Below are positions 12,746 to 38,139 of a DNA stretch of 64,000 nucleotides, piece by piece. Source of the stretch: Desulfobacteraceae bacterium. Lineage in GTDB: Bacteria > Desulfobacterota > Desulfobacteria > Desulfobacterales > Desulfosarcinaceae. The notes below the pieces were generated by a model. It saw only the letters and a list, made by a program, of their open reading frames with translations, had not been told where the DNA came from and searched no databases. Location: the NCBI GenBank assembly GCA_050288425.1, contig JBNKDU010000124.1, positions 48,711 to 112,710 of the forward strand. Direction: 5' to 3'. The first letter of the stretch is position 1. Each line of letters opens with the position of its first letter. Position numbers and translations under genes: made by a program.

Positions 12746-12755
12746 GAGGCGATCC

Positions 12756-19248: not shown

Positions 19249-19270
19249 GATAATAAGGGTCGATCTCCTT

Positions 19271-21325
19271 TTAAAACGGGATGCGGATCAATTCGACTTG
19301 CACGGTCTGGCGTGTCCGCCGGTCATCATTGGCCTCGTCATGCTCGTCAAGGTAGCTGTAGGTGATGCCGCCGGTCCAGATGCGGTACTTGAATTCGAGC
19401 TTGGCAAGGATGCCGGTATCCACCACTTCGCGTAAATCACCGCTGACGCTTTCCCAGAAACCTTCCAGGCTGAATTTGCTCCATGAGCGCAGCAGGTACT
19501 CGCCCCGCACCCGCAGACTGATCACCTGTTCGGACTGGTCCAGCTCCTTGAAATAGATGTCGGTGTAGCCGCCGGTGATGGAACCGAAGAGACGTCCGCC
19601 GGTATGTTGGCGCAAGGTCTGTTCGGCGCTCCATTGGGTAGTGGAAATCCCGCTGTCGCGCTCGCTGTCCTCCAGGGTCAGCCGGGTCTCGTACATCGGT
19701 TTGGTATAGCGCACCAGGGCCGTGTGGACCTGTTCGCCCGCCGGGCTGCTTGGATCGGGTCCGCTGGTGATGGATTGATCGGCGCGACGGTAGCGGTAGG
19801 AGAGGGTCAGGGCATCCCAGAGGAAAAACTCGAATCCGTAGCGTTGGCGTAGAATGGCATCGTCGAAGCTGGCGTCGGAGGTGAACTGATAGTCCACCAG
19901 TACGGTTTGCCCTTCGGCGATATTCCCCAGCACGGTACGGCTGATCCGGGTCTGATTGCCGATCTGCTCCAGGATGTAATCCGCGCCATTGACATAGACG
20001 ATGGTGGCGTTGCCGTTCGTAACCCGCACCGTGGCAGGATCCACATTGGGATTGTTCAGGAAGGTGACCGCGGATGTGCTCAGGGTCTGGGGTTCTGCGA
20101 TTACCTGGATCTGCAGTGCGTCCAGATTGCGGGTGGTGACGTCGTAGTTGGCGCCTGCGAACAGGTTCATGCGTCCCCACTCGATGGGTTGCCGAAAGGT
20201 GAAATCGAGCCGGCCGCGATAGATTTGCTCGTCGCCTCCGGTGAATTCATTGCCGGTGTAGCCGGCGCCGCCGGCGGTGGTCAGCCTGTCATTATACAAA
20301 TGAGTGACGCGGGCTTCCGCGTCCTGGGATTGAAATTCGGAAACGCCGGTTTCCGCGCGGCTGAAGCCCAGGTTGTAGTCGCTGCGCAGGTTGGTGCGGT
20401 GCTGCCAGTGCAGGTTTTCACGCAGCCGCAGGCTGTTGGTCTCCAAGGTTCCGAAATCGGAGCTCCGGTAATTCCAGAAGGAGTTGAGTTTCACCCGCTG
20501 GTCACGGGCCAGCATCCATTCGTTGTGCAGGTCGGAATTCAAGGTGTCGACGGTATTGGTAAATCCCTGGAGGGTGCGTTCGTTTTCGCTGTAGGTGGCG
20601 CTCAGGCGGGTCTTGCTGCGGATGGCGTTGTGGTGCGTCACCAGGTTGTATTGGTCCTGGGTCTCCTGGGAGTCGAAAAATCCGGATTGGTCCACGTCCC
20701 GGTGAACGTAACCCAGGGTGGTGGGCAGCAGGCGGTTCTTGAGGTAGATGTCGGCGCCGTATGTGTCGATCTCGGATTCGGCGCTCTGGGCAAAGGCGCT
20801 GCGAAGGGTGGTCTCCCGGCGCTGGCCGAAGAGGCGCAGGGAAACCGGTTTGGGGTCCAACAGGCGCGCCTCGGCAAAATAGGACGCCAGGGTATCGCTG
20901 GAATCGTCATTTTCTCCGGAGTCGCGGTCCTGGGTGGATTGCCGGAGCTCCGGCTCCACCCGCAATTTCAATTTCATCAGGGCCGGATGGTAGATCCATC
21001 CGTTGGTTTCCAGGACGAGCCGTTCGCGCCACTCCTGGGTGGTGTCCCGGCTGTCGCCCCGGCCTCCGCGACGTTCCTCCTCTTCGAAATGATAGGCGAG
21101 ACCCAGTCCCACCTTGGGACGTTGGAAGTAGATCCGGCCGGTTTCGCCGTCACTCTCCTTGGCCGCGGGCACGGCCCGCAGGGAAAGGGTCGCTGGAACT
21201 TCCAGCGGAATGACGGTATTTCCATCCGATTCTGGTTGCTCGGCGGCCATCGTCCGATCGTGAACGGCGAGGCTGAGGAGTAACGCGGCTGCGGCGATCC
21301 ATGTACGATATTGGCAAGCTTTCAT
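19271..21325 (-). CDS. Putative outer-membrane beta-barrel (porin-like) protein
   Basis: 684 aa. Signal peptide MKACQYRTWIAAAALLLSLAVHDRTMAAEQ. No haem or Cys motifs. Composition is rich in Y/R/T/N/D/G with alternating hydrophobic residues. The C-terminal ...VQVELIRIPF ends in Phe, like a BAM beta-signal. Size is comparable to MtrB-type barrels. No family recognised by eye. Confidence 0.6.
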   Translation of the reverse strand: MKACQYRTWIAAAALLLSLAVHDRTMAAEQPESDGNTVIPLEVPATLSLRAVPAAKESDGETGRIYFQRPKVGLGLAYHFEEEERRGGRGDSRDTTQEWRERLVLETNGWIYHPALMKLKLRVEPELRQSTQDRDSGENDDSSDTLASYFAEARLLDPKPVSLRLFGQRRETTLRSAFAQSAESEIDTYGADIYLKNRLLPTTLGYVHRDVDQSGFFDSQETQDQYNLVTHHNAIRSKTRLSATYSENERTLQGFTNTVDTLNSDLHNEWMLARDQRVKLNSFWNYRSSDFGTLETNSLRLRENLHWQHRTNLRSDYNLGFSRAETGVSEFQSQDAEARVTHLYNDRLTTAGGAGYTGNEFTGGDEQIYRGRLDFTFRQPIEWGRMNLFAGANYDVTTRNLDALQIQVIAEPQTLSTSAVTFLNNPNVDPATVRVTNGNATIVYVNGADYILEQIGNQTRISRTVLGNIAEGQTVLVDYQFTSDASFDDAILRQRYGFEFFLWDALTLSYRYRRADQSITSGPDPSSPAGEQVHTALVRYTKPMYETRLTLEDSERDSGISTTQWSAEQTLRQHTGGRLFGSITGGYTDIYFKELDQSEQVISLRVRGEYLLRSWSKFSLEGFWESVSGDLREVVDTGILAKLEFKYRIWTGGITYSYLDEHDEANDDRRTRQTVQVELIRIPF

Positions 21326-21388
21326 GCGGAACCCGATTCTTCCGTTTTTGAGGGCAAATGGCTGTAGTCGCTATCCCGATTCATGAGG

Positions 21389-22495
21389 TTACGGCCGGTT
21401 TTCCGGTGAACCGACATATTCGCCAAACCCGTATACATTGATGCGATTGGGGCCGAAGCCGGAGGCCACGTAGACCACATATTCCAGCCGAAATCCCGGA
21501 TCGACGAAGTTGGCGAAATATTGGGCGTTGGCATAATCGATATGTACGCCTGCAGGCAGGTAGAGATTGCCCGCCCCGGTGCCGCCGCCGCCGAAATAGA
21601 GCAGCATGCCGCCGGAGTCGGCATCGAAGATCTGAACATTTTCAAATGCTGCGTCGGCCACGTACAAATGGCCGCTGTGGTCCACGGCCAATCCTTTGGG
21701 ACGGGCGAACGCGCCCAGGTTGTCCCCCGGAAAACCATAGGCCTTGACAAACCGGCCTTCCCCATCGAATTGCTGCACACGGAAATTGAAGGAGTCGGTG
21801 ACGAAGAGATGGCCACGGGGATCGACGGTTAGATGGGACGGCATGCGAAAGGCCCCCGGATCGGCACCGGTGCGGCCGATGCGCTGGAGCACCCTGCCGC
21901 TTGCGCGATCGAGCACCACCACCTGGTTGCGTTTGAGATCGCAGACATAGACGCGGTTTTCATATACCGCCACGTCCACCGGCCTTTCGAAGACCTCTGC
22001 ATTGCCGTATGTCCGCAAATAGCGGTTACGGTCATCGAAGACCACCACCTGTTTGCGCCCCATGTCGGCGATGTACTTGATGTCTTCGGGCGTGACCCAG
22101 ATACCCGACGGGTTCTGAAGGGCGCCCATGCCGGAGTCGGCCAGGGAGTCGATGCGTCGTTTGGCCAGATCGATGATGCGCAGCTTCCGGGGGTTGCGGT
22201 CCAACACGTAGATCTTGCCCGGAACCGAGGCCACATCATAGGGGCGCCCGATGAGTTCGCCGGTCGGCGCCTCTCCCAGCAGAAACCGGTCCCATTTGCT
22301 GCGGCGGCGACCCAAGTCCGCTTCCGCGCTGATGGTGTGCAGGTATTGCAGCCGTGGCCGTTCCGGCGGGGGTGGGTAGAAAACGATGGGTCGCTCCGCC
22401 TGGCGGGACGGGACCGATGCGCAGCCCCCGAGAATGAGCAGGGCCAGTGCGGACGCGGCCCATGCCCGCCACGCAAGCCGGGTGCGAATTTCCAT
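21389..22495 (-). CDS. NHL-repeat six-bladed beta-propeller lipoprotein
   Basis: I prefer the ATG at 22495 (MEIRTRLAWRAWAASALALLILGGCAS, lipobox LGGC), preceded by AGGAGA. The track ORF starts at 22540. NHL blades include KIYVLDRNPRKLRIID, RVYVCDLKRNQVVVLD, HLFVTDSFNFRVQQFD, HLYVADAAFENVQIFD. Confidence 0.85.
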   Translation of the reverse strand: MEIRTRLAWRAWAASALALLILGGCASVPSRQAERPIVFYPPPPERPRLQYLHTISAEADLGRRRSKWDRFLLGEAPTGELIGRPYDVASVPGKIYVLDRNPRKLRIIDLAKRRIDSLADSGMGALQNPSGIWVTPEDIKYIADMGRKQVVVFDDRNRYLRTYGNAEVFERPVDVAVYENRVYVCDLKRNQVVVLDRASGRVLQRIGRTGADPGAFRMPSHLTVDPRGHLFVTDSFNFRVQQFDGEGRFVKAYGFPGDNLGAFARPKGLAVDHSGHLYVADAAFENVQIFDADSGGMLLYFGGGGTGAGNLYLPAGVHIDYANAQYFANFVDPGFRLEYVVYVASGFGPNRINVYGFGEYVGSPENRP

Positions 22496-22553
22496 CTTCT
22501 CCTGATGAGATCGTAGGAATGTGCTTTGCGCCATGACCATCCTGTTCTGTCGT

Positions 22554-23189
22554 CTATAGATTGTGGCAGGTCAAACAAAGGGACGAAGCCGTATTGCTCT
22601 TGCGCAAGAGAGAGACCTGACCGAACTTGTTGTGCACATCGTGACACGACGCACACTCCATGCGACTTCCGAAAAGCATGTCGCTGAGAATGGTTCCCGA
22701 GCTGCCGTCCAGACCCGAAAGCGTGGTGGCCGGATCGCGCAGGCTGCCGTCGGCCAGGGCCAGGTCGGTATTGTAGACGAAAGAGATGGGGTGATCGTTG
22801 CTCAGGTCGGTGCCTAGATTGTTGCGTCCGCTGATCAACTGGCTGCCCGGATTGCCGCCGAATGCATCGATGGCGATGGTGCCGTCATGACACGACAGGC
22901 ACAGTTTGGATGGTCCGATGGGCTGATTCAGCGACCCGGCGGTGGTGCCCGCATCGAGAGTGTCGCTTCCGTAAAGGTTATAGACGGCCGTGGAAACCGC
23001 ATGGTTCCACATGGGGACGTTTTGGACGTCCGTGGATGTGTTGTGGGGCGCATGGCACGGCAGGCAAATTTCTCCCTGGGAGAATCCCAGCCCGCTGAAA
23101 TCGTGGGCGCTGCCCGCGATTTCGGCCATGGCAGTTGCGTAAAGGGCCAATACCAGCATGGTCGTGAAGATGAATAGATTCTTTAACAT
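22554..23189 (-). CDS. Secreted tetrahaem c-type cytochrome
   Basis: ATG at 23189 (MLKNLFIFTTMLVLALYATAMA signal). Motifs CLPCH, CLSCH, CASCH, CLTCH. The sequence is colinear with the N-terminal third of the 566-aa cytochrome (SAHDF..CLPCHAPHN..CLSCHDGTIAID..GTDLSNDHPISFVYN). Confidence 0.85.
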   Translation of the reverse strand: MLKNLFIFTTMLVLALYATAMAEIAGSAHDFSGLGFSQGEICLPCHAPHNTSTDVQNVPMWNHAVSTAVYNLYGSDTLDAGTTAGSLNQPIGPSKLCLSCHDGTIAIDAFGGNPGSQLISGRNNLGTDLSNDHPISFVYNTDLALADGSLRDPATTLSGLDGSSGTILSDMLFGSRMECASCHDVHNKFGQVSLLRKSNTASSLCLTCHNL

Positions 23190-23312
23190 GGGAACACCTA
23201 TCCTAGCTGATGGGCAGCAATTGCTGCATGAAATATGGAATTCGGCTTTCGGCCATTTTCGTGACGGCGTCACGTGTTTTGTGAAGCAAGTTTGCATGGG
23301 CATGGGTTCTCC

Positions 23313-26057
23313 TTATCCCTTCCGGCGTCTGGGATCGTGGTAGTAAAGATATCGGTACAGTCCCTCGGGTCCGTGGCACGCTGCGCAGACGGTGTTTGCG
23401 CTGCCGACCCGGAGATACTTGTTGAGGATATCGTCCGATTTCAATTTTACCATCCTTGTCCCGGATGCGACACCCTGGTGGGCGTTGTGGCAGGAAGGGC
23501 AGCCCAAATCGCCCACCCGCCGCCGGCGACCCTCGGCATCGAACAGCGGGAAGCCTTCGCCCGAGTCGGGGGCTCCCGGCCGGCGGATGGTGGACAACAG
23601 CCTGCCGGTGGGGTGTCCCGCGGCTTGCGGGACGCTTCGGGCGGCAATTTTCCCAGCCGCGTGGCAGCTTCGGCACAGCATGTTTACGCCGATCTCGTCG
23701 ACGTCCGGATCGGTCAGGGGTCGCGCCCACAGCTTCAAGGATCGGGGGCTGTTGTGCACGATATGGCAACCGCCGCAAACGCCGGATTCCGTCGGCGTCT
23801 GGCCCAGGACATTGCGCGATTCGGGAGCCGATACCGTCAGGTCGTGGGTGGTGCCGTCCACCCGCGACATCTTGGGATGGCAGTCCCTGCAAAGGGAAGA
23901 GTTGGCATTGTTGGGCCGCCGGAGAAAACTGGTAGTCGTATCGCCCTCGGTATTTACGGCGCCCGGGGATTCCTTGCGGCCAGCCGCACTCCAGACATGG
24001 GCATCGTGGCAGGTGGTGCAGACCATAAGATCTTCTTCCCCCTGCGGATCCGAGTAAAGCGGCAGGGCAGCCAAACCGCCGGCTTTCGGGGACATCCAGC
24101 GATTCTTGTTCTCAACCTTGCGGCCCACCGGATGGGAATTGTCATTGACCAGCTTTTTGTCTGCCAGGCCGCCGGGCCGATGGCAACTGGCGCATCGGCG
24201 GGTAACCGGATCGCCGCCCGGCCCCGGCGCAAGACCCCATAGACGGTCCGCGGTGCCCTGGTGGGGCGCATGGCAGCCGCTGCACGGATCGCTATCGGCC
24301 CGGATACCGAGGCTGTTGGTATGATCCGGGAAGATCTGCCCGATATGATGTTCGGTCATGGACACCCGGCCGTTACGGCGATGACAACCGACACAGAGCG
24401 CGGCCCGGTCCTGGTTGGCCATGCGCAGGAAACTGCTGCCTGCGTCGCCTTCCTGTTTCGGATCCTCGCTTTTCGCCAAGGCGCCCGGCCGCCAGCGGTG
24501 AACATCATGGCAGGTGGCGCACTGCATACTGCCTGAAGTCGATATGTCGCCTTTAGGAGTAAATCCGGGCAGCAATAGGGGCGAACCCGGGGCGAGGGCC
24601 ACGTTCAACGGATGGGAGCGGCCGGTGGTTTTTCCGGGACGCCAGGGCAAATCTCCGTGGCAGCTCAAACACGTTTGGGTGGCGGGGTGGCCCTGGTCCA
24701 GTGGGCGCGCCCACAACTTCCAGCCCATTGCGTTGTGCGGCAGGTGGCAAGCGCTGCAGGGACCGGATGCGGCCGCCGTGGCCGAATGGGTGTTGCGTAT
24801 CTCCGGGGCTGTATGAACCATGTTGTGCGCCGTGTCGATGACCGTGGCCTTGTCTTGGTGGCAGTTGAGGCACAAGGCCGAATTCCTGGCGCTGGGAACA
24901 CGCAGGAAACTGTTGCCGCCGTCTCCCTGACCATTCTCGGGAGGCAGCCTGGATTCATCCTCAGGCGCCCAGCGGTGGACGTTATGGCAGGTGAAACACT
25001 GCACCTTGCCCCGGTGGGCGGACGGCCTTCCATCGGTGAGATAGAGGGGCAGACCGTCGGCCGGCGGCTTGGCCGGCCGACGGTCCACCGAGTGCGATAC
25101 CTTGCCGATTCCGCGGGCCACGCTGTCGGGACCTTCTGAATGACAACTCAGACACATCCCCGAAGCCGGATTGGAATTGCCGATGTCCCGGTTCCACAGC
25201 CGCTTGCCGTTGGCGTCGTGGGGCGAGTGACATCCGCCGCAAGTGCCCCATTTGTAAACCTTGGCGTCCTTCTTGGTTTTGGGATCCAGGCGCAGGTCAT
25301 GACGGGTGCCGACGATGGTGGTCTTTTCTGCGTGGCAGGCCGTGCAAAGCGTGGCGCTGGTGTCGGCCATGATGCTTATTTTATCTCCACGGGCACCGTG
25401 AACGCGGTGGCAGGTCTGGCAAACCAGGGTGCGGCCGTCCGGTCCGATTTTGCTGCCGGCGGTCCGCAGCAATGCCGGCAGCTTGCGCGGCAGGGGTTTC
25501 AACGGGTGTCCGTTGGTGCGCTGAAAGTCGGCCTTGTCCTGATGGCACATGGCGCACAAGGTGACGGTAGGATTGCTGGTCCGCAGGAAGGAAGTAATTT
25601 CCAGCGGAATTTCGGCAGATTCCTCGGGACCGGTGTGGGGGGTATGGCAGGTGCCGCAGTAGAGTTCATCTTTCCGGCTCAGCGGCAGCGACGCAGGTAC
25701 GCTGACCTTTCGGCTGGGTTTGATCATGGAGGGATGAGATTTGCCCTTCCAGGCCACGGCGCGCGAGTCGCGAACGTAGCCATCGTGACAGGTGTAGCAA
25801 CTATCCTCGGAAGAGACCACCCCCTGGGTATTTTTCATCAGGACATTGCCCGGCTGCCAGGGAATCAACGTTTCCTGGGTGCTGCGGAACTCATCCAGCC
25901 ACATCACATGGCAGATCGCACAATCTCTCTTGGAAGATTGTTCCCTGGCGTCTACCGGAGATGCCAGCAGGAAGAGGATGGCCAGCAGGACCGGCCATCC
26001 GGCCGGCGCCGGGATCCTGGCAATTGGATAACGGGATATGGTCCGGTTCGGGTTCAT
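23313..26057 (-). CDS. Giant modular multiheme c-type cytochrome (22 CxxCH)
   Basis: 914 aa; signal ...GWPVLLAILFLLASPVDA. 22 CxxCH motifs counted: a 6-haem N-terminal region followed by four tandem modules of about 150 aa and 4 haems each. Conserved C-terminus CAACHGPEGLYRYLYYHD. Confidence 0.9.
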   Translation of the reverse strand: MNPNRTISRYPIARIPAPAGWPVLLAILFLLASPVDAREQSSKRDCAICHVMWLDEFRSTQETLIPWQPGNVLMKNTQGVVSSEDSCYTCHDGYVRDSRAVAWKGKSHPSMIKPSRKVSVPASLPLSRKDELYCGTCHTPHTGPEESAEIPLEITSFLRTSNPTVTLCAMCHQDKADFQRTNGHPLKPLPRKLPALLRTAGSKIGPDGRTLVCQTCHRVHGARGDKISIMADTSATLCTACHAEKTTIVGTRHDLRLDPKTKKDAKVYKWGTCGGCHSPHDANGKRLWNRDIGNSNPASGMCLSCHSEGPDSVARGIGKVSHSVDRRPAKPPADGLPLYLTDGRPSAHRGKVQCFTCHNVHRWAPEDESRLPPENGQGDGGNSFLRVPSARNSALCLNCHQDKATVIDTAHNMVHTAPEIRNTHSATAAASGPCSACHLPHNAMGWKLWARPLDQGHPATQTCLSCHGDLPWRPGKTTGRSHPLNVALAPGSPLLLPGFTPKGDISTSGSMQCATCHDVHRWRPGALAKSEDPKQEGDAGSSFLRMANQDRAALCVGCHRRNGRVSMTEHHIGQIFPDHTNSLGIRADSDPCSGCHAPHQGTADRLWGLAPGPGGDPVTRRCASCHRPGGLADKKLVNDNSHPVGRKVENKNRWMSPKAGGLAALPLYSDPQGEEDLMVCTTCHDAHVWSAAGRKESPGAVNTEGDTTTSFLRRPNNANSSLCRDCHPKMSRVDGTTHDLTVSAPESRNVLGQTPTESGVCGGCHIVHNSPRSLKLWARPLTDPDVDEIGVNMLCRSCHAAGKIAARSVPQAAGHPTGRLLSTIRRPGAPDSGEGFPLFDAEGRRRRVGDLGCPSCHNAHQGVASGTRMVKLKSDDILNKYLRVGSANTVCAACHGPEGLYRYLYYHDPRRRKG

Positions 26058-26067: not shown

Positions 26068-27018
26068 TCAATGCCGCAATTGGATACGGCGAATGCGGTT
26101 GGCCCGCATCTCCACTACGTGAATGTCCGTTCCGTTTCCGGCGGCGATCAGACCCACCGGCGTTTTCAACCGATAAACACTGCCGCTGTCGCATACAACG
26201 CCCAGCAAGCGGCCCATATCGGAGAATACCTGGATCACCCCCATATAGCTGTCGCTGATATAAACGCGGTCCTGGTTATCCACCGACACGCCTTTGGGCC
26301 GGACCAGTCTTCCCGGCGTGACCCCCCAGCCGCCGATGGTGTTCAGAAAATTGCCGAAGGGATCGAATTTCTGGATCCGGGTATTGAGCACATCCACCAC
26401 CAACAGCTCGTTGAGGCTGTTCTTCGCCAGCATGGCTGGATAGCGGAATTGGCCGTTGGCCTCGCCATATCCCCCCCAGGCAGTCTGAAATCGGCCCTGC
26501 TGATCGAAGACCTTTATTTTATGGTTGTCGTTGTCCACCACATAAATCCGATTCTTCAGCCCCGAAGCCAGCACATCCACCGGGTCGGCCGGTTTTTCAC
26601 CGGCCGCAGTGGGCACATCGAATTGGGATCGATATTTCCCATTCAAATCAAATACTTGAATGCGCCGATTGCCGCTGTCGGCAATGTAAACGCGTCCCTG
26701 GGCGATATCGATGCCCAGGGGCAGTTGAAATTCTCCCGGCCCCTGGCCGGGGGAACCGAAAGCGGACACCATGTTGCCTTCGGCGTCGATCACCGCCACC
26801 CGGTGGTTGACCCCGTCCACGAGATAGTAGTTGCCGTTGGGTGCCACGGCCACATCGCTGGGTTGATCCACATCCAAATTCCACGACGTTTGCGCACTGA
26901 TTTCGATGCACTCCATGGCCGCGGCCGGCCGGTCCGTGGATAGTGCGGCGAGCAGAATCCATCCTGCGATCAACCCCCCGCGAGTCCACAGCCGTAGGAT
27001 TTGCCGCAGGGTCATCAT
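26068..27018 (-). CDS. NHL-repeat six-bladed beta-propeller protein (secreted)
   Basis: The ATG at 27018 overlaps the upstream gene's stop (ATGA). The track ORF start at 27201 is an extension. Signal MMTLRQILRLWTRGGLIAGWILLAALS. Blades include NYYLVDGVNHRVAVID, RVYIADSGNRRIQVFD, RIYVVDNDNHKIKVFD, ELLVVDVLNTRIQKFD, RVYISDSYMGVIQVF. Confidence 0.85.
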   Translation of the reverse strand: MMTLRQILRLWTRGGLIAGWILLAALSTDRPAAAMECIEISAQTSWNLDVDQPSDVAVAPNGNYYLVDGVNHRVAVIDAEGNMVSAFGSPGQGPGEFQLPLGIDIAQGRVYIADSGNRRIQVFDLNGKYRSQFDVPTAAGEKPADPVDVLASGLKNRIYVVDNDNHKIKVFDQQGRFQTAWGGYGEANGQFRYPAMLAKNSLNELLVVDVLNTRIQKFDPFGNFLNTIGGWGVTPGRLVRPKGVSVDNQDRVYISDSYMGVIQVFSDMGRLLGVVCDSGSVYRLKTPVGLIAAGNGTDIHVVEMRANRIRRIQLRH

Positions 27019-27890
27019 TTGGGCGAATCCTTTCCATCCGCAGGTTTTCCACCGGCCCGGGTATCGGATAATAGATCCGGCAGGTACCAGCTTTCGTATT
27101 TGGCCAACATACCGGTGATATTCAAATGGACCAGATCGGCGATGCGTTTTTCGCTGAAATCGAGGGTGCGGTAGTCGAGGATTCCGTTCTCGGCATGGCA
27201 AGCTTGGCAGTCGGGCCCCTTCGCCTGCGTGTCGGTGTGGAATTGTGCCGCCGCTGCCTTGCGTTCATCGTCGCCCAACTGCCCGCGGGCACGCAAAAAA
27301 TCCCGCGCCGATTGGCGCCGGGCATCTGCCGTCGCCGATGGGGGCCCGTCCGGCAAGGCAGGATCGACGGGCGTAATTTTGGAGAAGGCATCGTCAACCA
27401 TGGCCAGATACCCGGTTTTGTCATCGTAACGCGTACCGGCAAATGGGCCTTCGGGGGCCGGATCGATGGGGCTGGCCCAGCGGAAGACGACGCGATGATG
27501 ATCCTCCGTCTTTATATGACAGCTTTGGCAGGCCAAGTATTGGGTGTGCATATTCAGCAGGGCCCGAATCCGCTTGCTCTTGTTGTGGGGCATTTCCGAA
27601 TGGCAGATCAGGCACAGGGGTTGCTGCGACTCAGACAGCCCGGGGTAGCGGACCAGGTTGTGGAAATGACGGTGGCGGTCCAGTTTGGCCTGGCGCTGTT
27701 CAGCGGTCAAGACCGGCGCACCGGGAGCCGCATGCCGTCCGATCAGCGGTCGCAACAGCCCCGGGCCGTGATGCGAGAGGGTCAGATGATAAATAACGCC
27801 GGCACCCACGCACAGGGACATGGCCAGAAAAATCAGCCCGAGGATATAGGCCAGCAGGGGATGGTTTTTGGGGTGCTGCTCGTTTGTCAA
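27015..27890 (-). CDS. Membrane-anchored trihaem c-type cytochrome
   Basis: 291 aa. TTG start at 27890 with GGGAG 9 nt upstream; there is no ATG before the TM helix. N-terminal TM helix LLAYILGLIFLAMSLCVGAGVIY. Motifs CLICH, CQSCH, CQACH. Confidence 0.75.
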   Translation of the reverse strand: MTNEQHPKNHPLLAYILGLIFLAMSLCVGAGVIYHLTLSHHGPGLLRPLIGRHAAPGAPVLTAEQRQAKLDRHRHFHNLVRYPGLSESQQPLCLICHSEMPHNKSKRIRALLNMHTQYLACQSCHIKTEDHHRVVFRWASPIDPAPEGPFAGTRYDDKTGYLAMVDDAFSKITPVDPALPDGPPSATADARRQSARDFLRARGQLGDDERKAAAAQFHTDTQAKGPDCQACHAENGILDYRTLDFSEKRIADLVHLNITGMLAKYESWYLPDLLSDTRAGGKPADGKDSPK

Positions 27891-27896
27891 TCTAGA

Positions 27897-28907
27897 TTAC
27901 TCCCTATGGCCGCCCGGAATTCCGGCATCTTCCGCTGCAGCTTCTTCCCTGTCCTTTTCGGCGTCTTTCCTATTGGCGGCTACATCCCGTTGCCGATCTT
28001 CGAGTCCGACCAGCAAGCGCCTCATGTAAGCCCGCTCTTCCGGCATCTCTTCCAGATTGCGGATATATTCCAGGAAATGTTCCTCGATCTGGTGTTCCCG
28101 GGTAATCTTGCCGGTGAGAAACGTCCATTGCACGGGAAAGCGGCCCGGAACGAAGTGGACGTTGCCCCAGTGCCAGAAGGCAAGAACAATCAGAGCCATG
28201 ACAGCCTCGTCGGCGTGCATCAACCTGGCCAGGTCCTGAATCAGACCTGGGGCCGTGCGGCTGACTTCAGGATCTCCCAAAAGCACATCCGCGATGCTTC
28301 TGGGGATCACGCCGGACAATTGGTCCGGCAGCAGCAATGCCAATCCGGCAATGGTAAGGACCGCCGTACCCCAGATAATGGCCAGGTAGTGAATCTTCTG
28401 CTTGTACATGAATTTTTCCATCATGGGCCGCTGGGGCGTCCTTCCCAAGAAATATTGGATGTCCTGGAAAATATCTTTGAGATCTTGCAGCCGGGGCAAT
28501 TGCGTGCGCCGGTAGTCGAAACGACCCTGGATCAGTTGCAGGCCGGTTCCGCCGAGAATGGTGAGAATATGGTAGGCCGAGGCGAACATCATGACATAGG
28601 CGCCGATTCTGTGGATGGCCATGGCGTTGTCGATGCCGCCGTACAGGGCGATCACATAGGGGGACCAGAACTCGTCGCTGAAGTAAAGCGGCACCCCCGT
28701 GGATGCCAGCACGAGGAAGCTGACGAATACCAGAAGATGCTGAATGACGATATGAGGAGAATAACGGGGCAGGTCCCCATAGGGATTGGAGGCGACATGT
28801 TTATAGATATCCCTGGGAACGAAACCGACCCCCTCGACGAAAAATCCGCCCTGCGGCCGCGTTGTGCCTTCCCCGGTGCCATCGGTGGTGAGGATTGTTT
28901 CCGTCAT
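27897..28907 (-). CDS. Integral-membrane dihaem cytochrome b (FdnI/PhsC/CbcB-like)
   Basis: The ATG at 28907 overlaps the upstream cytochrome c gene's stop (ATGA). About four TM helices carry conserved His: HIVIQHLLVF, AIHRIGAYVMMFASAYHIL, and MHADEAVMALIVLAFWHW. Ends in a charged C-terminal tail. Confidence 0.75.
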   Translation of the reverse strand: MTETILTTDGTGEGTTRPQGGFFVEGVGFVPRDIYKHVASNPYGDLPRYSPHIVIQHLLVFVSFLVLASTGVPLYFSDEFWSPYVIALYGGIDNAMAIHRIGAYVMMFASAYHILTILGGTGLQLIQGRFDYRRTQLPRLQDLKDIFQDIQYFLGRTPQRPMMEKFMYKQKIHYLAIIWGTAVLTIAGLALLLPDQLSGVIPRSIADVLLGDPEVSRTAPGLIQDLARLMHADEAVMALIVLAFWHWGNVHFVPGRFPVQWTFLTGKITREHQIEEHFLEYIRNLEEMPEERAYMRRLLVGLEDRQRDVAANRKDAEKDREEAAAEDAGIPGGHRE

Positions 28908-29986
28908 GATGGATTGTCTCCCGCGGAGGATGGGTGCCCTCGCCATGAGGACCCCTGATACAGCACGAATCGGATGCCGTTTCGCTTGCGGCCAAAGGTT
29001 TCCAACAACAGCAGGCCCATCAGGCCTCCCATGGTCCCGTACAATACCAGACGCAACATCAGGTTGATGATGTAGATAACCGGATTTTCATCTTTGCCGG
29101 TTTCCGGGTGCACCGCCACGTTGACGAACCAGTCGTTGGTCCGCTGGTGGCACTGCCGGCAGGTGGTCCGCAGATTGTTGGCGTTGATGGAGGCCCGGGG
29201 ATCTTCCTTGGCAAAGATATCGTGCAAGGCATTGCTGGCATGGCAACTGAGGCAATCGGCGGTCCTCTCCGATCCCAGCATGATGGCCTGGCCGTGTATG
29301 CTGCGGGAATAGGTGGCCACTGCTTTCATCGATCTTGGACTCAGCTGGAAAGGCGCCAACAGCCGCTGGTCGGCATGGCAGTCGGCACACAGGCGATCGA
29401 TTTCCACCGGCAAACGCGTGGTTTTTTTGCGCAGGCGGTGGGTGACATGCATGTACGCGCGGGTTACTCCCTCCTGCTGGTGGCAATTGAGGCAGCGTTT
29501 CAACGTCCGTTCGTAAGAGATCCGTTCTTCCAGGGGTCTGGCCAGCAGGGGGTTGAGATGGCAGTATTTGCAGTCCGGTCGGGCCTGGCGCATTTCCGGC
29601 GTATCCTCCGGTTTGGGGGCATGCACGCTGCTGTTGAACAGGTCCGCGATTTTGCGGTGGGAGAAGACATCGTCGGCAAAGGGGGGTCTGACATGGCAGG
29701 CCGTGGCGCAATCGACGTTTTGGCTGATCGGATCGTGGGGTATCTTGCGGATCGAGGTGTGGCACTCGCGGCAACCGACGCTGCGGTGGACGCTATGGGC
29801 GTACATGGTAGGGTCGACATGATAGGTGATCCGCCGGCCCGTTTCATCCATTCTTCCCAGGTACGGGTATTTGTGGCACATCAGGCAGTTCTCCTTGTCC
29901 GCACCGACTGCCCAAACCGGCGAGAAGTTGGATAACAGGCCCCATAGGATTGCCGCAGCGATCGATATTTTGAGACGCGAATCCAT
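28904..29986 (-). CDS. Multiheme c-type cytochrome with C-terminal membrane anchor (7 CxxCH plus 1 Cx3CH; CbcA-like)
   Basis: 360 aa. Signal MDSRLKISIAAAILWGLLSNFSPVWA. Motifs CLMCH, CRECH, CATACH, CKYCH, CLNCH, CADCH, CLSCH, CRQCH. C-terminal TM helix VIYIINLMLRLVLYGTMGGLMGLLLL. Confidence 0.85.
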   Translation of the reverse strand: MDSRLKISIAAAILWGLLSNFSPVWAVGADKENCLMCHKYPYLGRMDETGRRITYHVDPTMYAHSVHRSVGCRECHTSIRKIPHDPISQNVDCATACHVRPPFADDVFSHRKIADLFNSSVHAPKPEDTPEMRQARPDCKYCHLNPLLARPLEERISYERTLKRCLNCHQQEGVTRAYMHVTHRLRKKTTRLPVEIDRLCADCHADQRLLAPFQLSPRSMKAVATYSRSIHGQAIMLGSERTADCLSCHASNALHDIFAKEDPRASINANNLRTTCRQCHQRTNDWFVNVAVHPETGKDENPVIYIINLMLRLVLYGTMGGLMGLLLLETFGRKRNGIRFVLYQGSSWRGHPSSAGDNPS

Positions 29987-30030: not shown

Positions 30031-30954
30031 CTATAAGCGATGGCATTCGATGCACAACCGGCCGGGCAGGCGGTGCCGGTATTTGGAACCGGCACCTTTT
30101 GCGCTGGGCCGTGACGCAGGGATAATGCCTTGGTCGTGGGGGTTGTGGCAGGTGATGCAAGTCAATTTGCCTTCGGCGTCCAACGGCAGAATGATGTCGA
30201 ACTTGGCTTCCATCTTTTTCATGACCCCCAGCATCTTTTCCGAAGGCTTAACCAGGTGGTTGAAATTGCCGGAATGTCTGCCTTCGATTCGATGACACCG
30301 TTGGCAGATCATTTCCAGATCGCCGACATATTCCAGCGAGGCGTACGTGTCGGTTTCGGTGTTCGGCACGGAGGCATGGCAGTAGAGGCAGGTTTGCTCC
30401 TTAATTTCACCGGATTCTAATTTCTGCAGGTGAGGATTAAAGGCCTGGTAAATATCGGGGTTGTGGCAACGAAAGCAAATTCCCGTGCGGTTGGCATAGG
30501 GTGCCCCGCGCACCGAGTTTTTCTCAAAATCCCGCCGCGAGCATTGGTAGTGGATATCGTGGCAGGTCAGGCAGGTGATTTTCCCTTTTTCCAACGGAAA
30601 CTCCCGGGGAATTCTCGCTGCCAGGGCATTGGACGGCACAATCCCCACCGGGTGTACATAACGTTGGGGGTCATGACATTTGCACAGCAGATTGTAGTCC
30701 CCCTTGTATTTGAGCTGGCTATCGCTTTTTCCTGCGGGAACGCGGACGTGACAGGCCTTGCAGTACTGTCCGGTATAATGAAAGGGGCCCTGGGTCCAAC
30801 CGTCCCAGTCTTCTTGCGATGCGGCGTGACAGACTGTCTTGGCGATAAGGATTACCAGGACCAGAGCAACGAGACTCAGCACCCTTCCCATGGTTTGGGG
30901 GATGCTCTTCTCGACTCCGGTGGACCGGTGGAGTATGAGGCGAGAAGGAACCAT
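30031..30954 (-). CDS. Secreted heptahaem c-type cytochrome
   Basis: Motifs CKACH, CLTCH, CFRCH, CLYCH, CQRCH, CITCH, CIECH. Hydrophobic signal GRVLSLVALVLVILIAKTVCHA. The start is uncertain: ATG at 30954 or 30891. The track start at 31083 is TTG and adds an implausible 64-aa extension. Confidence 0.8.
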   Translation of the reverse strand: MVPSRLILHRSTGVEKSIPQTMGRVLSLVALVLVILIAKTVCHAASQEDWDGWTQGPFHYTGQYCKACHVRVPAGKSDSQLKYKGDYNLLCKCHDPQRYVHPVGIVPSNALAARIPREFPLEKGKITCLTCHDIHYQCSRRDFEKNSVRGAPYANRTGICFRCHNPDIYQAFNPHLQKLESGEIKEQTCLYCHASVPNTETDTYASLEYVGDLEMICQRCHRIEGRHSGNFNHLVKPSEKMLGVMKKMEAKFDIILPLDAEGKLTCITCHNPHDQGIIPASRPSAKGAGSKYRHRLPGRLCIECHRL

Positions 30955-31079
30955 CGTCTTTTCAACCCTTCCATCAATCATGGGGTTTGGCAATAGCTTT
31001 CTCCTGATCCTCCTCTCATCGGGAGGCAATTCCTGCAATTGCGCAAAATGCGATAACGCGCATCGTGAAGACGGACAAA

Positions 31080-33362
31080 TCAATTCACCTTATGTTGTCC
31101 AGGGGGCCCTGGACGGCGCCACAGTTCGCGTTTTTCAGTGTCGTGAAAATAGAGATACCGAAACAGACTATCGATACCATGGCAATCCATACAGAGGATT
31201 TCACTGCTCGAGTTGCGCAGGAAACGAAATCGCACTTGCACCGGGTAAGGATCGGCGGGGTGCGGCGCGGCAGCGGGCAAATGTCCGTTGTGGCATGTTG
31301 GACAACCGATATCGCCAACCCGCGTGCGATGTCCGAGATCGTCGAAAACGGGCGTGGACTTTTCCCTGCCCCGGGTGGGGTCTGCATGGCCGGCGACCAA
31401 TTTGCCGGCTGGGTGGCTGGCGATGGCCGGAATTCTTTTCTCGGCTGGTTTGCCCCTGGCGTGGCAGCTGGTGCACAATCCGCCGATGGGATTTACGTTT
31501 TCGGATAGCGGTCCATACTCGCGGGCCCACAGCCGCATGGAGTTGGGGCTGTTGTGGGGCAGATGGCAGGCGCCGCAAAGACCGGAGGATTGAACGGTCT
31601 GGCCCGCCAGGTTAGTCGCTTCCGGCGCTGTGTTTCTCAGGTCGTGGGAGGATCCCGCCATGTTGGCCTGGGCCATGTGGCAACTTTTGCACAGATCCGG
31701 TTCCGGCGCGTTGGCGATGCGCAGAAAGCTGTCGGCGGCCGTGCCCTCGACATTTGCGGAGTATGAATCGGCGTCGGGAGAGGACCGCCGGCTCCAGATA
31801 TGTGGTTCGTGACAGGTCAGGCAGACCATATTCCGGTCGGGATTCCGGTTCCCCTTGTCATCGTACCGCGGCAGGGTCGGGGCGATGTCCCCGCCACCCG
31901 GCCGCAGGGCGGCCAGGGAAACATGGATCGGGTGGTCGTTGCCGCCCACCAGTTTGTTTTTGGCGGATCCCCGGGCGTTATGGCATGAGGTACAAACCTG
32001 GGAGGCCCAATCCTCATCGGCTGTCAGCGGTCTGGCCCACAGGCGTCTCTGCGCGGCGTGATGCGGCACGTGGCAGGTGCTGCAGGGGCCTGCATTCTCC
32101 GGGGTCATCGATAGCGCGTTCTTCTCCAGGGGGGCCGTGATCCCAAGATTGTGGTCGGAGGTGAGCAGAGGTCGTTTGTCCGAGTGGCAGGTGACGCAGA
32201 GCGCGGAAGTGCCGTCGTTGGCTATTCTGAGAAAACTGTTGCCTGCGTCCCCATCCACCTTTACGTCGCCTCCATTGGCGGTGGCGTTCGGGTCCCAGCG
32301 ATGCACGTTATGGCAGGAGAAGCATTGCACGCTTCCGGTGGGTGTTTTGACGCCATTGGCGGAAAACAACGGCAGGTGGACGCCGCCGGCATATCGATCC
32401 TTCGGTCTTACGTTCACCGGATGGTTGTATTGTCCGAGACGTTTGGCTTGCAGTTCGCCATTCTCGCCATGACAGGTGAGGCACATCTGCTTGGCCGGCG
32501 GGTCGCCCGTCAAGGGACGGGCCCAGATTTTATTGCCGGCGGCATGATGGGGTACATGGCAGACGCCGCAGGGGCCTGATTTCACCGGCGTCTGGTGGCG
32601 GATGTTTTTGAGGTTGGGGAACTGCGCGCGCATGTCGTGTCTGGAATTCAGGAGACCGGCCTGCTCCTGGTGGCAGGTCAGACACAACGCGGATTTGGCT
32701 GTGGACGCTGTCAGAGCGCGCTTTCCGTGTGCCTGGTGGCAGGATTGACAGATCATCTCTCCTGCCGGACTGAATTTCGCACCCAGCTCGGCCGCTTTAA
32801 TTCTCGATTGCGCCTTGACGACTCTCAGCACCGGATGGCTGGCGCCCTCCTTTCGGCCGGTCCGGTTTCCGTGACAGGCGACGCACAGCTGGGATTTATC
32901 GTTGTCCATGCGCATGAACGCCGTACTGCCCACCTGGGCACTGTCTTTGAAATCGTGCAGCGTGTGGCAAGTGCCGCAGTAGATCTCGTTGTCGCTGTCC
33001 AGCCGCAGGATATCCGGGAGCTTCAGATTTTCCGGCACCTTCTTGAGCAGATGATGGGGATTGTCGGCCTCCACGGTGAGCCGGCTGTCGACCACATAGC
33101 CGTCATGACAGGTGATGCACATGGATTCGGTGGAGACCAGGCCGGTGGAACCGGCCACCACGATGGGCGATGCGGTTTCGGGCACCAGGGTCGCCTGGTG
33201 GGTCTGAACGGCGTCGAACCACGACACATGGCATAGCAGGCACTCTTTGTCGGCACGTCGGGTCAGGGCCTGGGCCGGCGCCGCCGTGAGCAGCCAGCCG
33301 CAGAGCAGCAAAAGGGACCATGCCCATGAAAGCGTTTTTTTATGGACGTGAATGGGGATCAT
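31080..33362 (-). CDS. Giant modular multiheme c-type cytochrome (18 CxxCH), paralogue of 23313-26057
   Basis: 760 aa; signal LSWAWSLLLLCGWLLTAAPAQA; GAAGGAAG SD. 18 CxxCH: the same 6-haem N-terminal region plus three 4-haem modules. C-terminus CMDCHGIDSLFRYLYFHD matches the paralogue. Confidence 0.9.
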   Translation of the reverse strand: MIPIHVHKKTLSWAWSLLLLCGWLLTAAPAQALTRRADKECLLCHVSWFDAVQTHQATLVPETASPIVVAGSTGLVSTESMCITCHDGYVVDSRLTVEADNPHHLLKKVPENLKLPDILRLDSDNEIYCGTCHTLHDFKDSAQVGSTAFMRMDNDKSQLCVACHGNRTGRKEGASHPVLRVVKAQSRIKAAELGAKFSPAGEMICQSCHQAHGKRALTASTAKSALCLTCHQEQAGLLNSRHDMRAQFPNLKNIRHQTPVKSGPCGVCHVPHHAAGNKIWARPLTGDPPAKQMCLTCHGENGELQAKRLGQYNHPVNVRPKDRYAGGVHLPLFSANGVKTPTGSVQCFSCHNVHRWDPNATANGGDVKVDGDAGNSFLRIANDGTSALCVTCHSDKRPLLTSDHNLGITAPLEKNALSMTPENAGPCSTCHVPHHAAQRRLWARPLTADEDWASQVCTSCHNARGSAKNKLVGGNDHPIHVSLAALRPGGGDIAPTLPRYDDKGNRNPDRNMVCLTCHEPHIWSRRSSPDADSYSANVEGTAADSFLRIANAPEPDLCKSCHMAQANMAGSSHDLRNTAPEATNLAGQTVQSSGLCGACHLPHNSPNSMRLWAREYGPLSENVNPIGGLCTSCHARGKPAEKRIPAIASHPAGKLVAGHADPTRGREKSTPVFDDLGHRTRVGDIGCPTCHNGHLPAAAPHPADPYPVQVRFRFLRNSSSEILCMDCHGIDSLFRYLYFHDTEKRELWRRPGPPGQHKVN

Positions 33363-33368
33363 CTTCCT

Positions 33369-34316
33369 TCACTGCAACGCATACACACTGACCATGTTCA
33401 GCGTCGATTGGACGACATAGAGCCGCTTATCCGAGTCGATGGCAATTCCCAGCGGTGTGACCAGCCGCAGGTGGCCGGGGCCGTCCGGCGAAGCCAATAT
33501 GCCACGGAACCGTCCCGTGGGTTCGAACACCTGAATCACTCCGGTGTAGCTGTCGGATATGTAGACGCCGCCGTCGCCGTCCAGGGCGATCCCTTTGGGG
33601 CGATAGAGCTGGCCGGGCAGCACGCCCAGTTGCGAGATTTGCCGCGGGTTCCCGCCGCCGGCATCGAACACCTGGACACGTCCGTTCAAAATATCGACGA
33701 CATAGAGATCGTCGCCGTCACGGGCGGCCATCATGCCGGGGAACCGCAGTTGTCCTTTCTGGTTTCCCATGCGGCCCCATCGGGCCGTCAGACTGCCGTC
33801 GGCCGCAAATACCATCACCTGGTGGTTGCGGGCGTCGCTGACGTAGATCCGCTTACCGCCCTGCCGGGCTTCCACCTCCACCGGCCGCGATTGCCAGGGT
33901 TTCAGGTCGATCTGGCGCTGGAACTTGCCGGTGCGGCCGAAAATCTGGATGCGCTGGTTCCCGGTATCCGCCACGTAGATCCGGCCCGCTTCGTCGATAT
34001 CGATGCCCACGGGGCTGTGGAATTGGCCCGCCTCCCGGCCCTGGCGGCCGATGGCGCCGATGTAGCGCCATTTGGCGTCGAACATTTTGACCTGGTGGTT
34101 GGCGCCGTCCAGCACATAGAGCCGGCTGTCCGGACCCACGGCGACTTCCGTGGGTTGATTGAAATCCTGTCGGATATCGGCGAGATGTTTCACCTGGATG
34201 GGTCGAACGGTTTCGCCGACGGCCGGCTGGGCAGTGGCGATGCCCGCACCGCCGATGGTCAGGCAAAGCCAGACCCACAAACCCGAGGTGATCTTGGCAA
34301 GACGGTTTTCGATCAT
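33369..34316 (-). CDS. NHL-repeat six-bladed beta-propeller protein (secreted)
   Basis: 315 aa. The ATG overlaps the upstream gene's stop (ATGA). Signal SGLWVWLCLTIGGAGIATA. Blades include RLYVLDGANHQVKMFD, RIYVADTGNQRIQIFG, RIYVSDARNHQVMVFA, DLYVVDILNGRVQVFD, GVYISDSYTGVIQVFE, RLYVVQSTLNMVSVY. Confidence 0.85.
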   Translation of the reverse strand: MIENRLAKITSGLWVWLCLTIGGAGIATAQPAVGETVRPIQVKHLADIRQDFNQPTEVAVGPDSRLYVLDGANHQVKMFDAKWRYIGAIGRQGREAGQFHSPVGIDIDEAGRIYVADTGNQRIQIFGRTGKFQRQIDLKPWQSRPVEVEARQGGKRIYVSDARNHQVMVFAADGSLTARWGRMGNQKGQLRFPGMMAARDGDDLYVVDILNGRVQVFDAGGGNPRQISQLGVLPGQLYRPKGIALDGDGGVYISDSYTGVIQVFEPTGRFRGILASPDGPGHLRLVTPLGIAIDSDKRLYVVQSTLNMVSVYALQ

Positions 34317-35284
34317 CGATTCTTGTCCGAAGTCGCCCGCGGCGGCATCCCGGTTTTCTGGCCGGCCGCCGACTCGATTTGCTCTTTCAGCCTGGAGATG
34401 ATCCGGTTCACACTGTCCCGGTTCGCCGGGTCCGTATCGAACAGGCCCGGCTCGAGCGCCTGTTTCACCTTCTCGCGGATCTGGTTGTTGCGGATCCCGA
34501 AGGCCATGGAAATGATGATGGAGTTTTGTTCCTCTTCTCTCCGGGAGGCCAGGTGGGAGACAAACACCTTGGGAGCGGTGAGAAACATGTCCACGAACAT
34601 ATGCGATAAATACTCGGCGGGAAAACCATAGGCGTTGGTGGAATAATCGAACAATGCCTGGAGGATGGTTTCGTCCTGCCGGTAGGCGAACAGGTCTGCC
34701 AGGTAGGAGAGAAAGTTCATGATATCGATGATCGCCTGGGAGGCCTCCACCGCCTGGGTCGGGTCCGCATTGCCGTCGTATTGCGGCAGAACCCGCAGCA
34801 GGAAGTCGCGGTTTTGTTCGTACCGGAACCCCCGTCTGGCCGCCATGAAGGCCAGCAGCGCCTTCTCCCGGTTCTCCCAGCCGCTTTGTTGGTTCAGGTT
34901 GTCGATCAGTCGATTGGCCACCGGCAGGTCGTGCTCGTCCAGCAGGCGCAAGGCGTCGCAGATGGTTTCCGTGCGGGTAAAGTAGTCGAATCGCGTGCGG
35001 GCGTGGATGGCGTCGCGGTCTTTTAGGATCTTCTGCAGCACATCGATGCGGTTCTTGGTGTCGAAACGCATGCCGATGTTGTCCAGGGCGATGATATCGG
35101 TGCGGTCCAGGGGGTAGCCGATCTTGATCAGGTTTCGAATCAAATTGCGGGTGTTGTAGTTCTGGGCCTGCGCTTCAGGGGGTACGATGCCGGACAGGGC
35201 GATCGTGAACAGCACCACCGCGCAGGCGATGGCGGCGGGCAGAAGCATGAGCCTCCGGTTCCGGACGTCGTGGATCCGGCCCAT
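34313..35284 (-). CDS. Hypothetical exported or membrane-anchored protein, no recognisable family
   Basis: ATG at 35284, preceded by GAGGGA; the track start at 35308 is TTG. N-terminal hydrophobic segment LMLLPAAIACAVVLFTIALSG, then about 300 aa of apparently helical, haem-motif-free sequence. Translationally coupled to the downstream NHL gene. Confidence 0.55.
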   Translation of the reverse strand: MGRIHDVRNRRLMLLPAAIACAVVLFTIALSGIVPPEAQAQNYNTRNLIRNLIKIGYPLDRTDIIALDNIGMRFDTKNRIDVLQKILKDRDAIHARTRFDYFTRTETICDALRLLDEHDLPVANRLIDNLNQQSGWENREKALLAFMAARRGFRYEQNRDFLLRVLPQYDGNADPTQAVEASQAIIDIMNFLSYLADLFAYRQDETILQALFDYSTNAYGFPAEYLSHMFVDMFLTAPKVFVSHLASRREEEQNSIIISMAFGIRNNQIREKVKQALEPGLFDTDPANRDSVNRIISRLKEQIESAAGQKTGMPPRATSDKNR

Positions 35285-35304
35285 GGTTTCCCTCGTATCG
35301 GAAT

Positions 35305-36726: not shown

Positions 36727-36803
36727 GACGGCTCCTTTCCCCAACCCCTCGGCAAGCGCTCTGTCCATGGCCCGTTTGCCATCCTTCTTATGCGGCGTTC
36801 GGG

Positions 36804-38102: not shown

Positions 38103-38139
38103 GAATGCGATTCCTTCTTCCAACCCGACGATGGCCGGA

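Follow-up and report, generated by a model that had tools for sequence, protein, structure and literature searches.

CbcBA (Cbc5, GSU0593/GSU0594) of Geobacter is a quinone-linked bc cytochrome in which three of the b-haem histidines are provided by CbcB and the fourth by the C-terminal domain of CbcA, and CbcL (Cbc1) is without sequence homology to it (Joshi et al., 10.1101/2021.04.15.440034). A reverse-running CbcBA has been proposed for Seep-SRB2, while the Qrc complex of sulfate reducers carries out electrogenic menaquinone reduction by periplasmic cytochromes c, upstream of Qmo and Dsr (PMC10553843). Qrc or, in one clade, a reversed CbcBA are the published proposals for the inner-membrane step in sulfate reducers that draw electrons from minerals, metal, electrodes or archaeal partners, a route that is still unsettled. 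Meanwhile, multihaem cytochromes encoded beside NHL beta-propellers have been proposed to exchange electrons with solids; this holds for Desulfovibrio ferrophilus IS5 (PMC5815863) and for the Uet cluster of Candidatus Tenderia, which also includes c7-type trihaem cytochromes, a cupredoxin and an undecahaem cytochrome (10.1101/2022.05.06.490989). Here, a stretch of 64,000 nucleotides (nt) from a Desulfobacteraceae bacterium (contig JBNKDU010000124.1, positions 48,711 to 112,710; hereafter the window) was analyzed, in which three adjacent minus-strand genes at 27015–29986 encode an octahaem cytochrome c, a dihaem cytochrome b and a trihaem cytochrome c.

It is considered that these three proteins probably make up one inner-membrane complex, a quinone:cytochrome c oxidoreductase that would serve as the gate of extracellular electron transfer, with inward electron flow favored at low certainty. 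A wider proposal is made only tentatively: the c8-b2-c3 module may be an undescribed and widespread inner-membrane gate of NHL/multihaem systems in uncultured sulfur-cycling bacteria and, in sulfate reducers, the inward, energy-conserving arm of a redox loop leading to Qmo and adenosine 5'-phosphosulfate (APS) reductase. No earlier description of an octahaem-b-trihaem triplet was found in the limited literature searched, so that this is a weak negative; the matches to related themes were CbcBA in Seep-SRB2, the NHL clusters of D. ferrophilus, Uet, PCC3 and Slit_1321-1324. The module is a concrete candidate for the inner-membrane step, occurring in at least 180 species-level genomes from three or more phyla, and it can be recognized by a simple signature, namely an octahaem cytochrome with one CxxxCH, a b cytochrome with the motifs MEKFMYK and ITREHQIE, and an anchored trihaem cytochrome. 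If it were only a divergent CbcBA, its value would be smaller, consisting of a better marker and a corrected subunit composition.

When compared by architecture and description, the locus resembles CbcBA in that a gene for a periplasmic multihaem cytochrome c held by a C-terminal helix lies directly upstream of a gene for a four-helix b cytochrome of the Pfam family PF01292, to which it is translationally coupled here, and in the presumed role of both systems, which in extracellular electron transfer is to pass electrons between menaquinone and the cytochromes of the periplasm. The preliminary description of the window had called the module CbcBA-like, and this stands for the architecture but not for the features that define the Cbc5/CbcBA operon, that is, haem number, histidine ligands, regulator and operon end. 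CbcA has seven haems, whereas the cytochrome here has eight, the extra one being contributed by a CxxxCH insertion; all four axial histidines of the b haems lie in the b subunit here, the anchor helix of the c subunit having no histidine; and an anchored trihaem third subunit is always present, sometimes in fused form. While the CbcBA operon ends with a terminator after cbcB, there is no transcription stop at this place in the present locus, where 6 nt separate the b gene from the trihaem gene. As for BccR/sigma-54 regulation of the CbcBA kind, neither a GAFTGA-type activator nor a TGGCA-N5-TTGC site occurs in the window, and an activator-like open reading frame lies nearby in only 5 of 84 loci. 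CbcC (12 haems) and CbcD (HAMP, 2 haems) of Geobacter are also unlike the trihaem and NHL genes found here. A tblastn search against plasmids, aimed at Geobacter CbcB/CbcA, gave no match, and when a heptahaem+b fusion served as the query of a protein search, all matches were fusions of other phyla. CbcL is comparable in combining a multihaem c and a dihaem b in one chain with extra helices, and fused relatives of the present proteins exist (P0123 and P0124), but CbcL is a fusion of a nine-haem c with a six-helix b, whereas the present system consists of three separate genes with 8 + 3 haems and a four-helix b.

The three genes and their products

The preliminary description had placed three open reading frames on the minus strand, and each of them lies at the positions reported there: the CbcA-like octahaem cytochrome c of 360 residues at 28904–29986, the dihaem cytochrome b of 336 residues, of the FdnI/HydC/PhsC type, at 27897–28907, and the trihaem cytochrome c of 291 residues at 27015–27890. 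Public gene calls (GCA_050287185.1, JBNKBK010000197.1) give identical lengths of 360, 336 and 291 residues, followed by 316 residues. The b gene starts with an ATG that overlaps the octahaem stop codon (ATGA), with GGGAGA 8 nt upstream; a longer b reading frame of 349 residues from 28946 is unnecessary, and the ATG of the overlap is preferred. The trihaem gene starts with TTG 6 nt past the b stop codon TAA and is preceded by AGGGAG at a distance of 9 nt, its homologues share the same start point by consensus, and its stop codon overlaps the ATG of the following NHL propeller gene (ATGA). The ATGA coupling between the octahaem and b genes, the 6-nt gap and the TTG start are therefore as first described. 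Residue shuffles of the octahaem protein gave a mean of 0.036 CxxCH and a maximum of 2, compared with 7 observed, and those of the trihaem protein gave a mean of 0.005, compared with 3 observed. Homologues of all three proteins in other genomes show 40–79% identity.

The octahaem cytochrome has a signal peptide, seven CxxCH motifs at residues 34, 72, 139, 165, 200, 245 and 276, one CxxxCH (CATACH) at residue 93, and a single C-terminal hydrophobic helix at about 306–330, followed by a basic cytoplasmic tail that is conserved; the motif count and the C-terminal transmembrane helix had been noticed before. The CxxxCH segment is an insertion relative to heptahaem relatives. Among 100 homologues with at least 80% query coverage, eight haem motifs (7+1, 6+2 or 6+1+1) are present in all except five, three of which have 7 motifs and two 11. 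Eight histidines outside the motifs are conserved (67, 84, 110, 122, 180, 231, 255 and 293), a number sufficient for bis-histidine ligation of eight haems. The conservation analysis found no histidine in the anchor helix, and since His293 is needed as the eighth distal ligand of the c haems, the b haems would be ligated by the b subunit alone. A PDB sequence search with the octahaem protein gave only one weak match, 28pb_A, an unnamed cytochrome c (E 0.002).

The b protein matches Pfam PF01292 with 34.9 bits (cut-off 30.1) and has four hydrophobic helices, in agreement with the four-helix, FdnI/PhsC-like cytochrome b proposed earlier. Its AlphaFold model has a predicted local distance difference test (pLDDT) value of 70, and the only confident PDB match of this model in Foldseek is 1kqf_C, FdnI of Escherichia coli (probability 1.00, template modelling (TM) score 0.58 on the target). 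His57, 99, 113, 231, 246 and 251 are invariant in 111 orthologues and paralogues, so that the four axial histidines, on which the earlier reading depended, are present and invariant. In the wider family, as sampled by the 150 cluster representatives of highest similarity, a single full-length sequence departs from the set His57, 99, 231 and 246; His113 is rarely lost, whereas about 10% have another residue in place of His251. In an hhalign alignment, for which the FdnI sequence was entered by hand and which therefore calls for some caution, His57 of the b protein pairs with His18 of FdnI and His99 with His57 of FdnI. PDB sequence searches with the b protein, either single or as a 26-sequence profile, gave no meaningful match; the family is distant from its solved relatives. 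It has more than 1000 metagenome relatives, the best of which are 57–79% identical, and those that are annotated are named formate dehydrogenase gamma subunit or thiosulfate reductase b subunit.

The b protein is predicted to have its N- and C-termini in the cytoplasm, with the c-haem domains of its partners in the periplasm. The lysine plus arginine counts are 4 for the cytoplasmic N-terminus, 10 for the loop between helices 2 and 3 and 14 for the C-terminus, against 0 and 2 for the periplasmic loops. The same topology, with both c domains outside, follows from the triple fusion P0124, whose domain order works no other way, and the domain order of the fusion P0123 is consistent with it. Both lines of evidence thus put the c-haem domains on the periplasmic side, as the preliminary description required. 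Among the most conserved parts of the protein are its long cytoplasmic N- and C-terminal segments, about 24–54 and 251–300, which contain long runs that are invariant across phyla, including the motifs MEKFMYKQK and ITREHQIEEHF.

The trihaem protein consists of one N-terminal signal-anchor helix (residues 12–34) and a periplasmic haem domain with CxxCH at 93, 121 and 228, and exactly three CxxCH are present in all 82 homologues. A quinol dehydrogenase of the NapC/NirT/NrfH/CymA kind was considered for this protein and rejected because all 82 homologues have three haems instead of four and there is no match to PF03264. Searches against Pfam and NCBIfam gave only sub-threshold matches, c7/c3 among them, and no significant PDB relative was found; the PDB sequence search returned only 1sp3_A (E 0.006). 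The octahaem tetrathionate reductase family matches it only weakly and over part of the sequence, with 33.7 bits compared with a cut-off of 375. A distant homologue of 427 residues, P0327, additionally carries a NapC/NirT domain (PF03264).

Synteny, natural fusions and distribution

A genome scan covering one genome per species, for which two highly specific peptide patterns were used, detected a relative in 180 species; the best 80 were analyzed by calling open reading frames in their loci and comparing them with every protein of the window cluster. These best 80 of 180 carriers, all of them metagenome-derived, comprise 35 from Desulfobacterales/"Deltaproteobacteria", 26 from Nitrospirota/Thermodesulfovibrionia, 12 Gammaproteobacteria (including Thiogranum and Thiohalophilus) and 7 others or unnamed, and neither Geobacter nor any member of Desulfuromonadales is among them. 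The order octahaem-b-trihaem is complete in 76 of the 80 loci by automatic count; of the four not scored as complete, L035 and L036 proved to have the whole triplet when inspected, and the other two are truncated at the end of a contig. The triplet thus occurs in every related locus whose flanks are long enough. The neighbors of the b gene are cytochromes c in all 80 loci. Where there is room on the contig, the gene next to the trihaem gene encodes an NHL propeller in 51 of 64 loci, and the one after that a large multihaem cytochrome, usually with 17–22 haems, in 45 of 47; together, NHL and large cytochrome genes come after the triplet in about 80% of loci. A heptahaem gene lies ahead of the octahaem gene in 25 of 66.

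In addition, 29 loci carry one or two further, paralogous octahaem-b-trihaem triplets whose b proteins are only 26–32% identical (L006, L024-L026, L028, L033, L035, L037-L039, L042, L044, L045, L052, L054-L058, L060, L063, L067-L069, L072, L073, L076-L078). These triplets adjoin the orthologous one, several being accompanied by a separate NHL gene and large cytochrome gene, which indicates an old tandem duplication of the whole module.

An exhaustive search of representative sequences found 1469 clusters related to the b protein, and 51 of the top 150 are long haem-bearing fusions. P0123 joins octahaem and b, and P0124 (878 residues) joins octahaem, b and trihaem, with BLASTP E values of 8e-82, 3e-78 and 6e-30, respectively. 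The fusions P0123, P0124, P0135, P0149, P0185 and P0192 combine multihaem c domains of 7, 8 or 19 haems with a b domain of this type. A large family of c+b fusions of 540–950 residues occurs in Calditrichota, Acidobacteriota, Armatimonadota and others. The obligatory synteny, the fixed haem numbers (8 and 3) and the natural fusions together argue that the three proteins work as one complex in which the trihaem protein is a core subunit. The trihaem cytochrome had been described as an extra component; its conserved synteny and the fusion P0124 show that it is instead an obligatory third member. The natural triple fusion is also a ready single-chain construct for expression and structure work.

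One reading that had been left to be checked was that the closest homologues might belong to formate dehydrogenase or thiosulfate reductase operons. They were never found beside the catalytic genes of these enzymes and are always flanked by two cytochromes; no molybdopterin or hydrogenase genes occur in the three annotated homologue contexts, and the Pfam families of a molybdo-enzyme or NiFe hydrogenase partner, as known for FdnI/HydC/PhsC, are absent from the annotated contexts.

The constant pairing with NHL/multihaem genes would link those poorly understood clusters to the quinone pool. Like the systems of D. ferrophilus IS5 and Uet, the locus has multihaem cytochrome genes beside NHL beta-propellers, with or without a barrel protein, but the available text of those descriptions mentions no cytochrome b and no anchored octahaem/trihaem triplet. 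An identity of the cluster with Uet or PCC3 was rejected because the composition differs.

The proposed complex and the direction of electron flow

The closest structural comparison is formate dehydrogenase-N of E. coli (FdnI with the anchor helix of FdnH, PDB 1KQF), which is the best fold match and shares with the module the aligned histidines in helices 1 and 2, two histidines in helix 4, the N-in/C-in topology, and a periplasmic partner whose one anchor is a C-terminal helix next to the bundle. The differences are that the partners here are multihaem cytochromes c rather than an iron-sulfur/molybdenum enzyme, that there is a second partner with an N-terminal anchor, and that the cytoplasmic extensions are much longer. 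The complex would hold two b haems and eleven c haems. The b subunit would form an FdnI-type four-helix bundle in which the outer, periplasmic-side haem is ligated by His99 and His231 and the inner, cytoplasmic-side haem by His57 and His246. The octahaem domain would sit in the periplasm on its C-terminal helix and the trihaem domain on its N-terminal helix, and both anchor helices may pack on the b bundle to give six helices in total. Relative to the octahaem subunit, the trihaem subunit may act as a proximal relay or as a second exit toward another partner. By analogy with FdnI, the quinone site is predicted to lie near the cytoplasmic-side haem, and electrons would be exchanged between the quinone pool and a periplasmic and outer multihaem network formed by the NHL propeller, the 22-haem cytochrome and a candidate porin cassette.

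If electrons ran from the periplasm to quinone, charge would cross the membrane and protons would be consumed on the cytoplasmic side, as happens in formate dehydrogenase-N; flow in the opposite direction would be driven by, and dissipate, the membrane potential. The aprB, aprA, qmoA, qmoB and qmoC genes lie at 8680–16305 on the plus strand, ending 170 nt from the cluster, and sat lies at 40134–41405 on the minus strand, so that sulfate-reduction genes bracket a cytochrome cluster of 23.5 kilobases. The presence of aprBA-qmoABC and sat indicates that the host is a dissimilatory sulfur-cycle bacterium, most likely a sulfate reducer. Because the host has Apr, Qmo and Sat, inward flow is favored as the most likely direction, although with low certainty. 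The path may then run from the outer cytochromes through the octahaem and trihaem subunits and the b haems to menaquinone and Qmo, and the inward direction would be the charge-separating half of a redox loop feeding Qmo and APS reductase, in a complex that should be reversible. Such an inward path is the role that has been proposed for the reversed CbcBA in Seep-SRB2 (PMC10553843). Qrc would be a functional analogue with the same proposed job, but it consists of entirely different proteins, namely NrfCD-type subunits, a molybdopterin-like subunit and a hexahaem cytochrome.

The same complex might also run outward, as a menaquinol oxidase like Geobacter CbcBA that passes electrons to Fe(III), Mn(IV), an electrode or a partner cell. 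Quinol would then be oxidized near the cytoplasmic side with the help of the membrane potential, and the host may respire such acceptors or oxidize sulfide via reversed Sat/Apr/Qmo. Geobacter CbcBA, the only genetically studied system of the same architecture, runs outward, and a reverse flow that dissipates the membrane potential fits the low-yield phenotype reported for it; Apr, Qmo and Sat are reversible in some Desulfobacterota. Moreover, the sequence leaves the direction free, and the cassette also occurs in sulfur-oxidizing Gammaproteobacteria (Thiogranum, Thiohalophilus), two points that bear directly on the inward proposal. However, an outward reaction in an FdnI-type layout would dissipate the proton-motive force and be costly as a main route, and, as a plausibility argument, the neighboring aprBA-qmoABC and sat genes and the Desulfobacterales affiliation of the closest homologues fit a sulfate reducer in need of quinone reduction. 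The outward direction is therefore regarded as the less likely one, though it keeps a substantial share of the probability.

Two readings with other partners are far less likely. The b protein and its two c partners might anchor a periplasmic enzyme and supply it with electrons, as FdnI, PhsC or NrfH do, the substrate being a soluble compound, for example an oxyanion of sulfur or nitrogen; the b family does anchor formate dehydrogenase, hydrogenase and thiosulfate reductase, an octahaem enzyme of the HAO/IhOCC type is encoded in the same gene string, and the trihaem protein has the weak match to octahaem tetrathionate reductase given above. This is nevertheless improbable, since genes for catalytic molybdo- or NiFe subunits are absent near every annotated homologue, the HAO-like gene travels with NrfCD and not with the triplet, distal histidines are conserved for all eight haems of the octahaem protein so that there is no obvious open catalytic haem, and the constant neighbors are an NHL propeller and 17–22-haem cytochromes, which are typical electron wires. 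A quinone-independent transmembrane wire, in which electrons of the periplasmic haems would travel via both b haems and reach a cytoplasmic partner docked on the conserved b segments and the basic tail of the octahaem protein, is the least probable of all. It would explain why b segments of about 24–54 and 251–300 are among the most conserved, why the octahaem tail is conserved, and why His113 and His251 are invariant toward the cytoplasmic side, but the cytoplasmic segments contain no cysteine clusters or cofactor motifs, and the cassette has no conserved cytoplasmic redox gene. In FdnI, too, a cytoplasmic helix contributes to the quinone site, and the simplest reading is that the cytoplasmic segments here shape a quinone pocket.

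Several points weigh against a quinone-linked complex of the proposed form. The AlphaFold model of the trihaem protein is poor (pLDDT 62.7), and its best Foldseek probability is 0.06 with no fold match; the b model itself is of moderate confidence. The FdnI profile alignment covers helices 1–3 and not helix 4, where both His231 and His246 are located, and these are 15 residues apart, compared with a spacing of 14 in FdnI. The two further invariant histidines of the b protein, His113 and His251, lie toward the cytoplasmic side and are unexplained by the scheme; a third b haem on them was considered as a candidate only, given the replacement of His251 in part of the wider family. Quinone binding is inferred from the membership of the b protein in its family, no isolate is found among the best 80 of the 180 carriers, and the proposal is built on sequences and models. 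In addition, a strong terminator-like hairpin at 40105–40073 separates sat from the cluster, and in the closest relative, L085 (79% b identity), the module and the downstream cassette stand in an unrelated neighborhood without apr, qmo or sat, which makes the position between qmo and sat only suggestive context. Co-transcription of sat, apr and qmo with the module was rejected on account of the hairpin after sat, the convergent orientation of qmoC and the lack of conservation of the neighborhood.

Gene neighborhood in the window

The module lies in a string of 19 co-directional genes at 16475–41405, sat included, with gaps of −4 to 95 nt and 86 c-haem motifs. A six-frame translation of the window contains 86 CxxCH, every one of them on the minus strand, and they are concentrated in ten cytochrome genes between 16475 and 40038. 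Directly after the trihaem gene follow the NHL-repeat beta-propeller of 316 residues (26068–27018, minus), which has a signal peptide and a Pfam NHL score of 86 bits, and a 22-haem cytochrome c of 914 residues with a signal peptide (23313–26057, minus), which is the usual last gene of the conserved cassette. On the other side of the module, a heptahaem cytochrome c (30031–31083, minus), with an open reading frame of 350 residues, is often, not always, the first cassette gene; its true start is probably an internal methionine before the hydrophobic segment 68–86, and in L085 an intergenic gap lies directly before it.

The downstream cassette (16475–23303, minus) encodes a 4-haem cytochrome, an NHL lipoprotein, a protein of 684 residues, a second NHL lipoprotein and a 12-haem cytochrome, the lipoboxes of the two lipoproteins being LGGC and VTAC, respectively. 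The 684-residue protein has no Pfam match, a signal peptide and the C-terminal sequence VELIRIPF, and by these features it may be an outer-membrane barrel. As a conserved block, the five genes come after the module in L027, L043 and L085 but ahead of it in L074, L075 and L083, and the cassette is probably the outer part of the same electron path.

The upstream cassette (34313–40038, minus) encodes a tetrahaem cytochrome, an NrfC-like iron-sulfur protein with a twin-arginine translocation (TAT) signal, an NrfD-like membrane protein, an octahaem cytochrome of the HAO/IhOCC type and a 331-residue protein of unknown function. The assignment is based on PF03916 (131 bits), Fer4 domains and the TAT signal, and the best PDB relative of the HAO/IhOCC-type octahaem protein is 4qo5_A (E 9e-40). 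This cassette is followed by an NHL propeller and an 18-haem cytochrome and then by the module, and the same five genes are together in L036. The NrfCD proteins had been put forward as a second quinone module and alternative gateway; they are indeed present in the gene string, but they sit in a separate conserved cassette with the HAO/IhOCC-type protein, and a role as general gateway is doubtful. NrfCD may instead serve the HAO-like octahaem protein, and the cassette resembles a quinol-linked system built around an octahaem enzyme more than it does a general gate for electrons.

Outside the gene string, a pyridine-nucleotide disulfide oxidoreductase with a C-terminal rhodanese domain, similar to coenzyme A-disulfide reductase, is encoded at 53006–54676 on the plus strand, and it adjoins a gene at 49840–52953 (plus strand) for a hybrid sensor kinase of 1037 residues with dCache, HAMP and PAS domains and two receiver domains.

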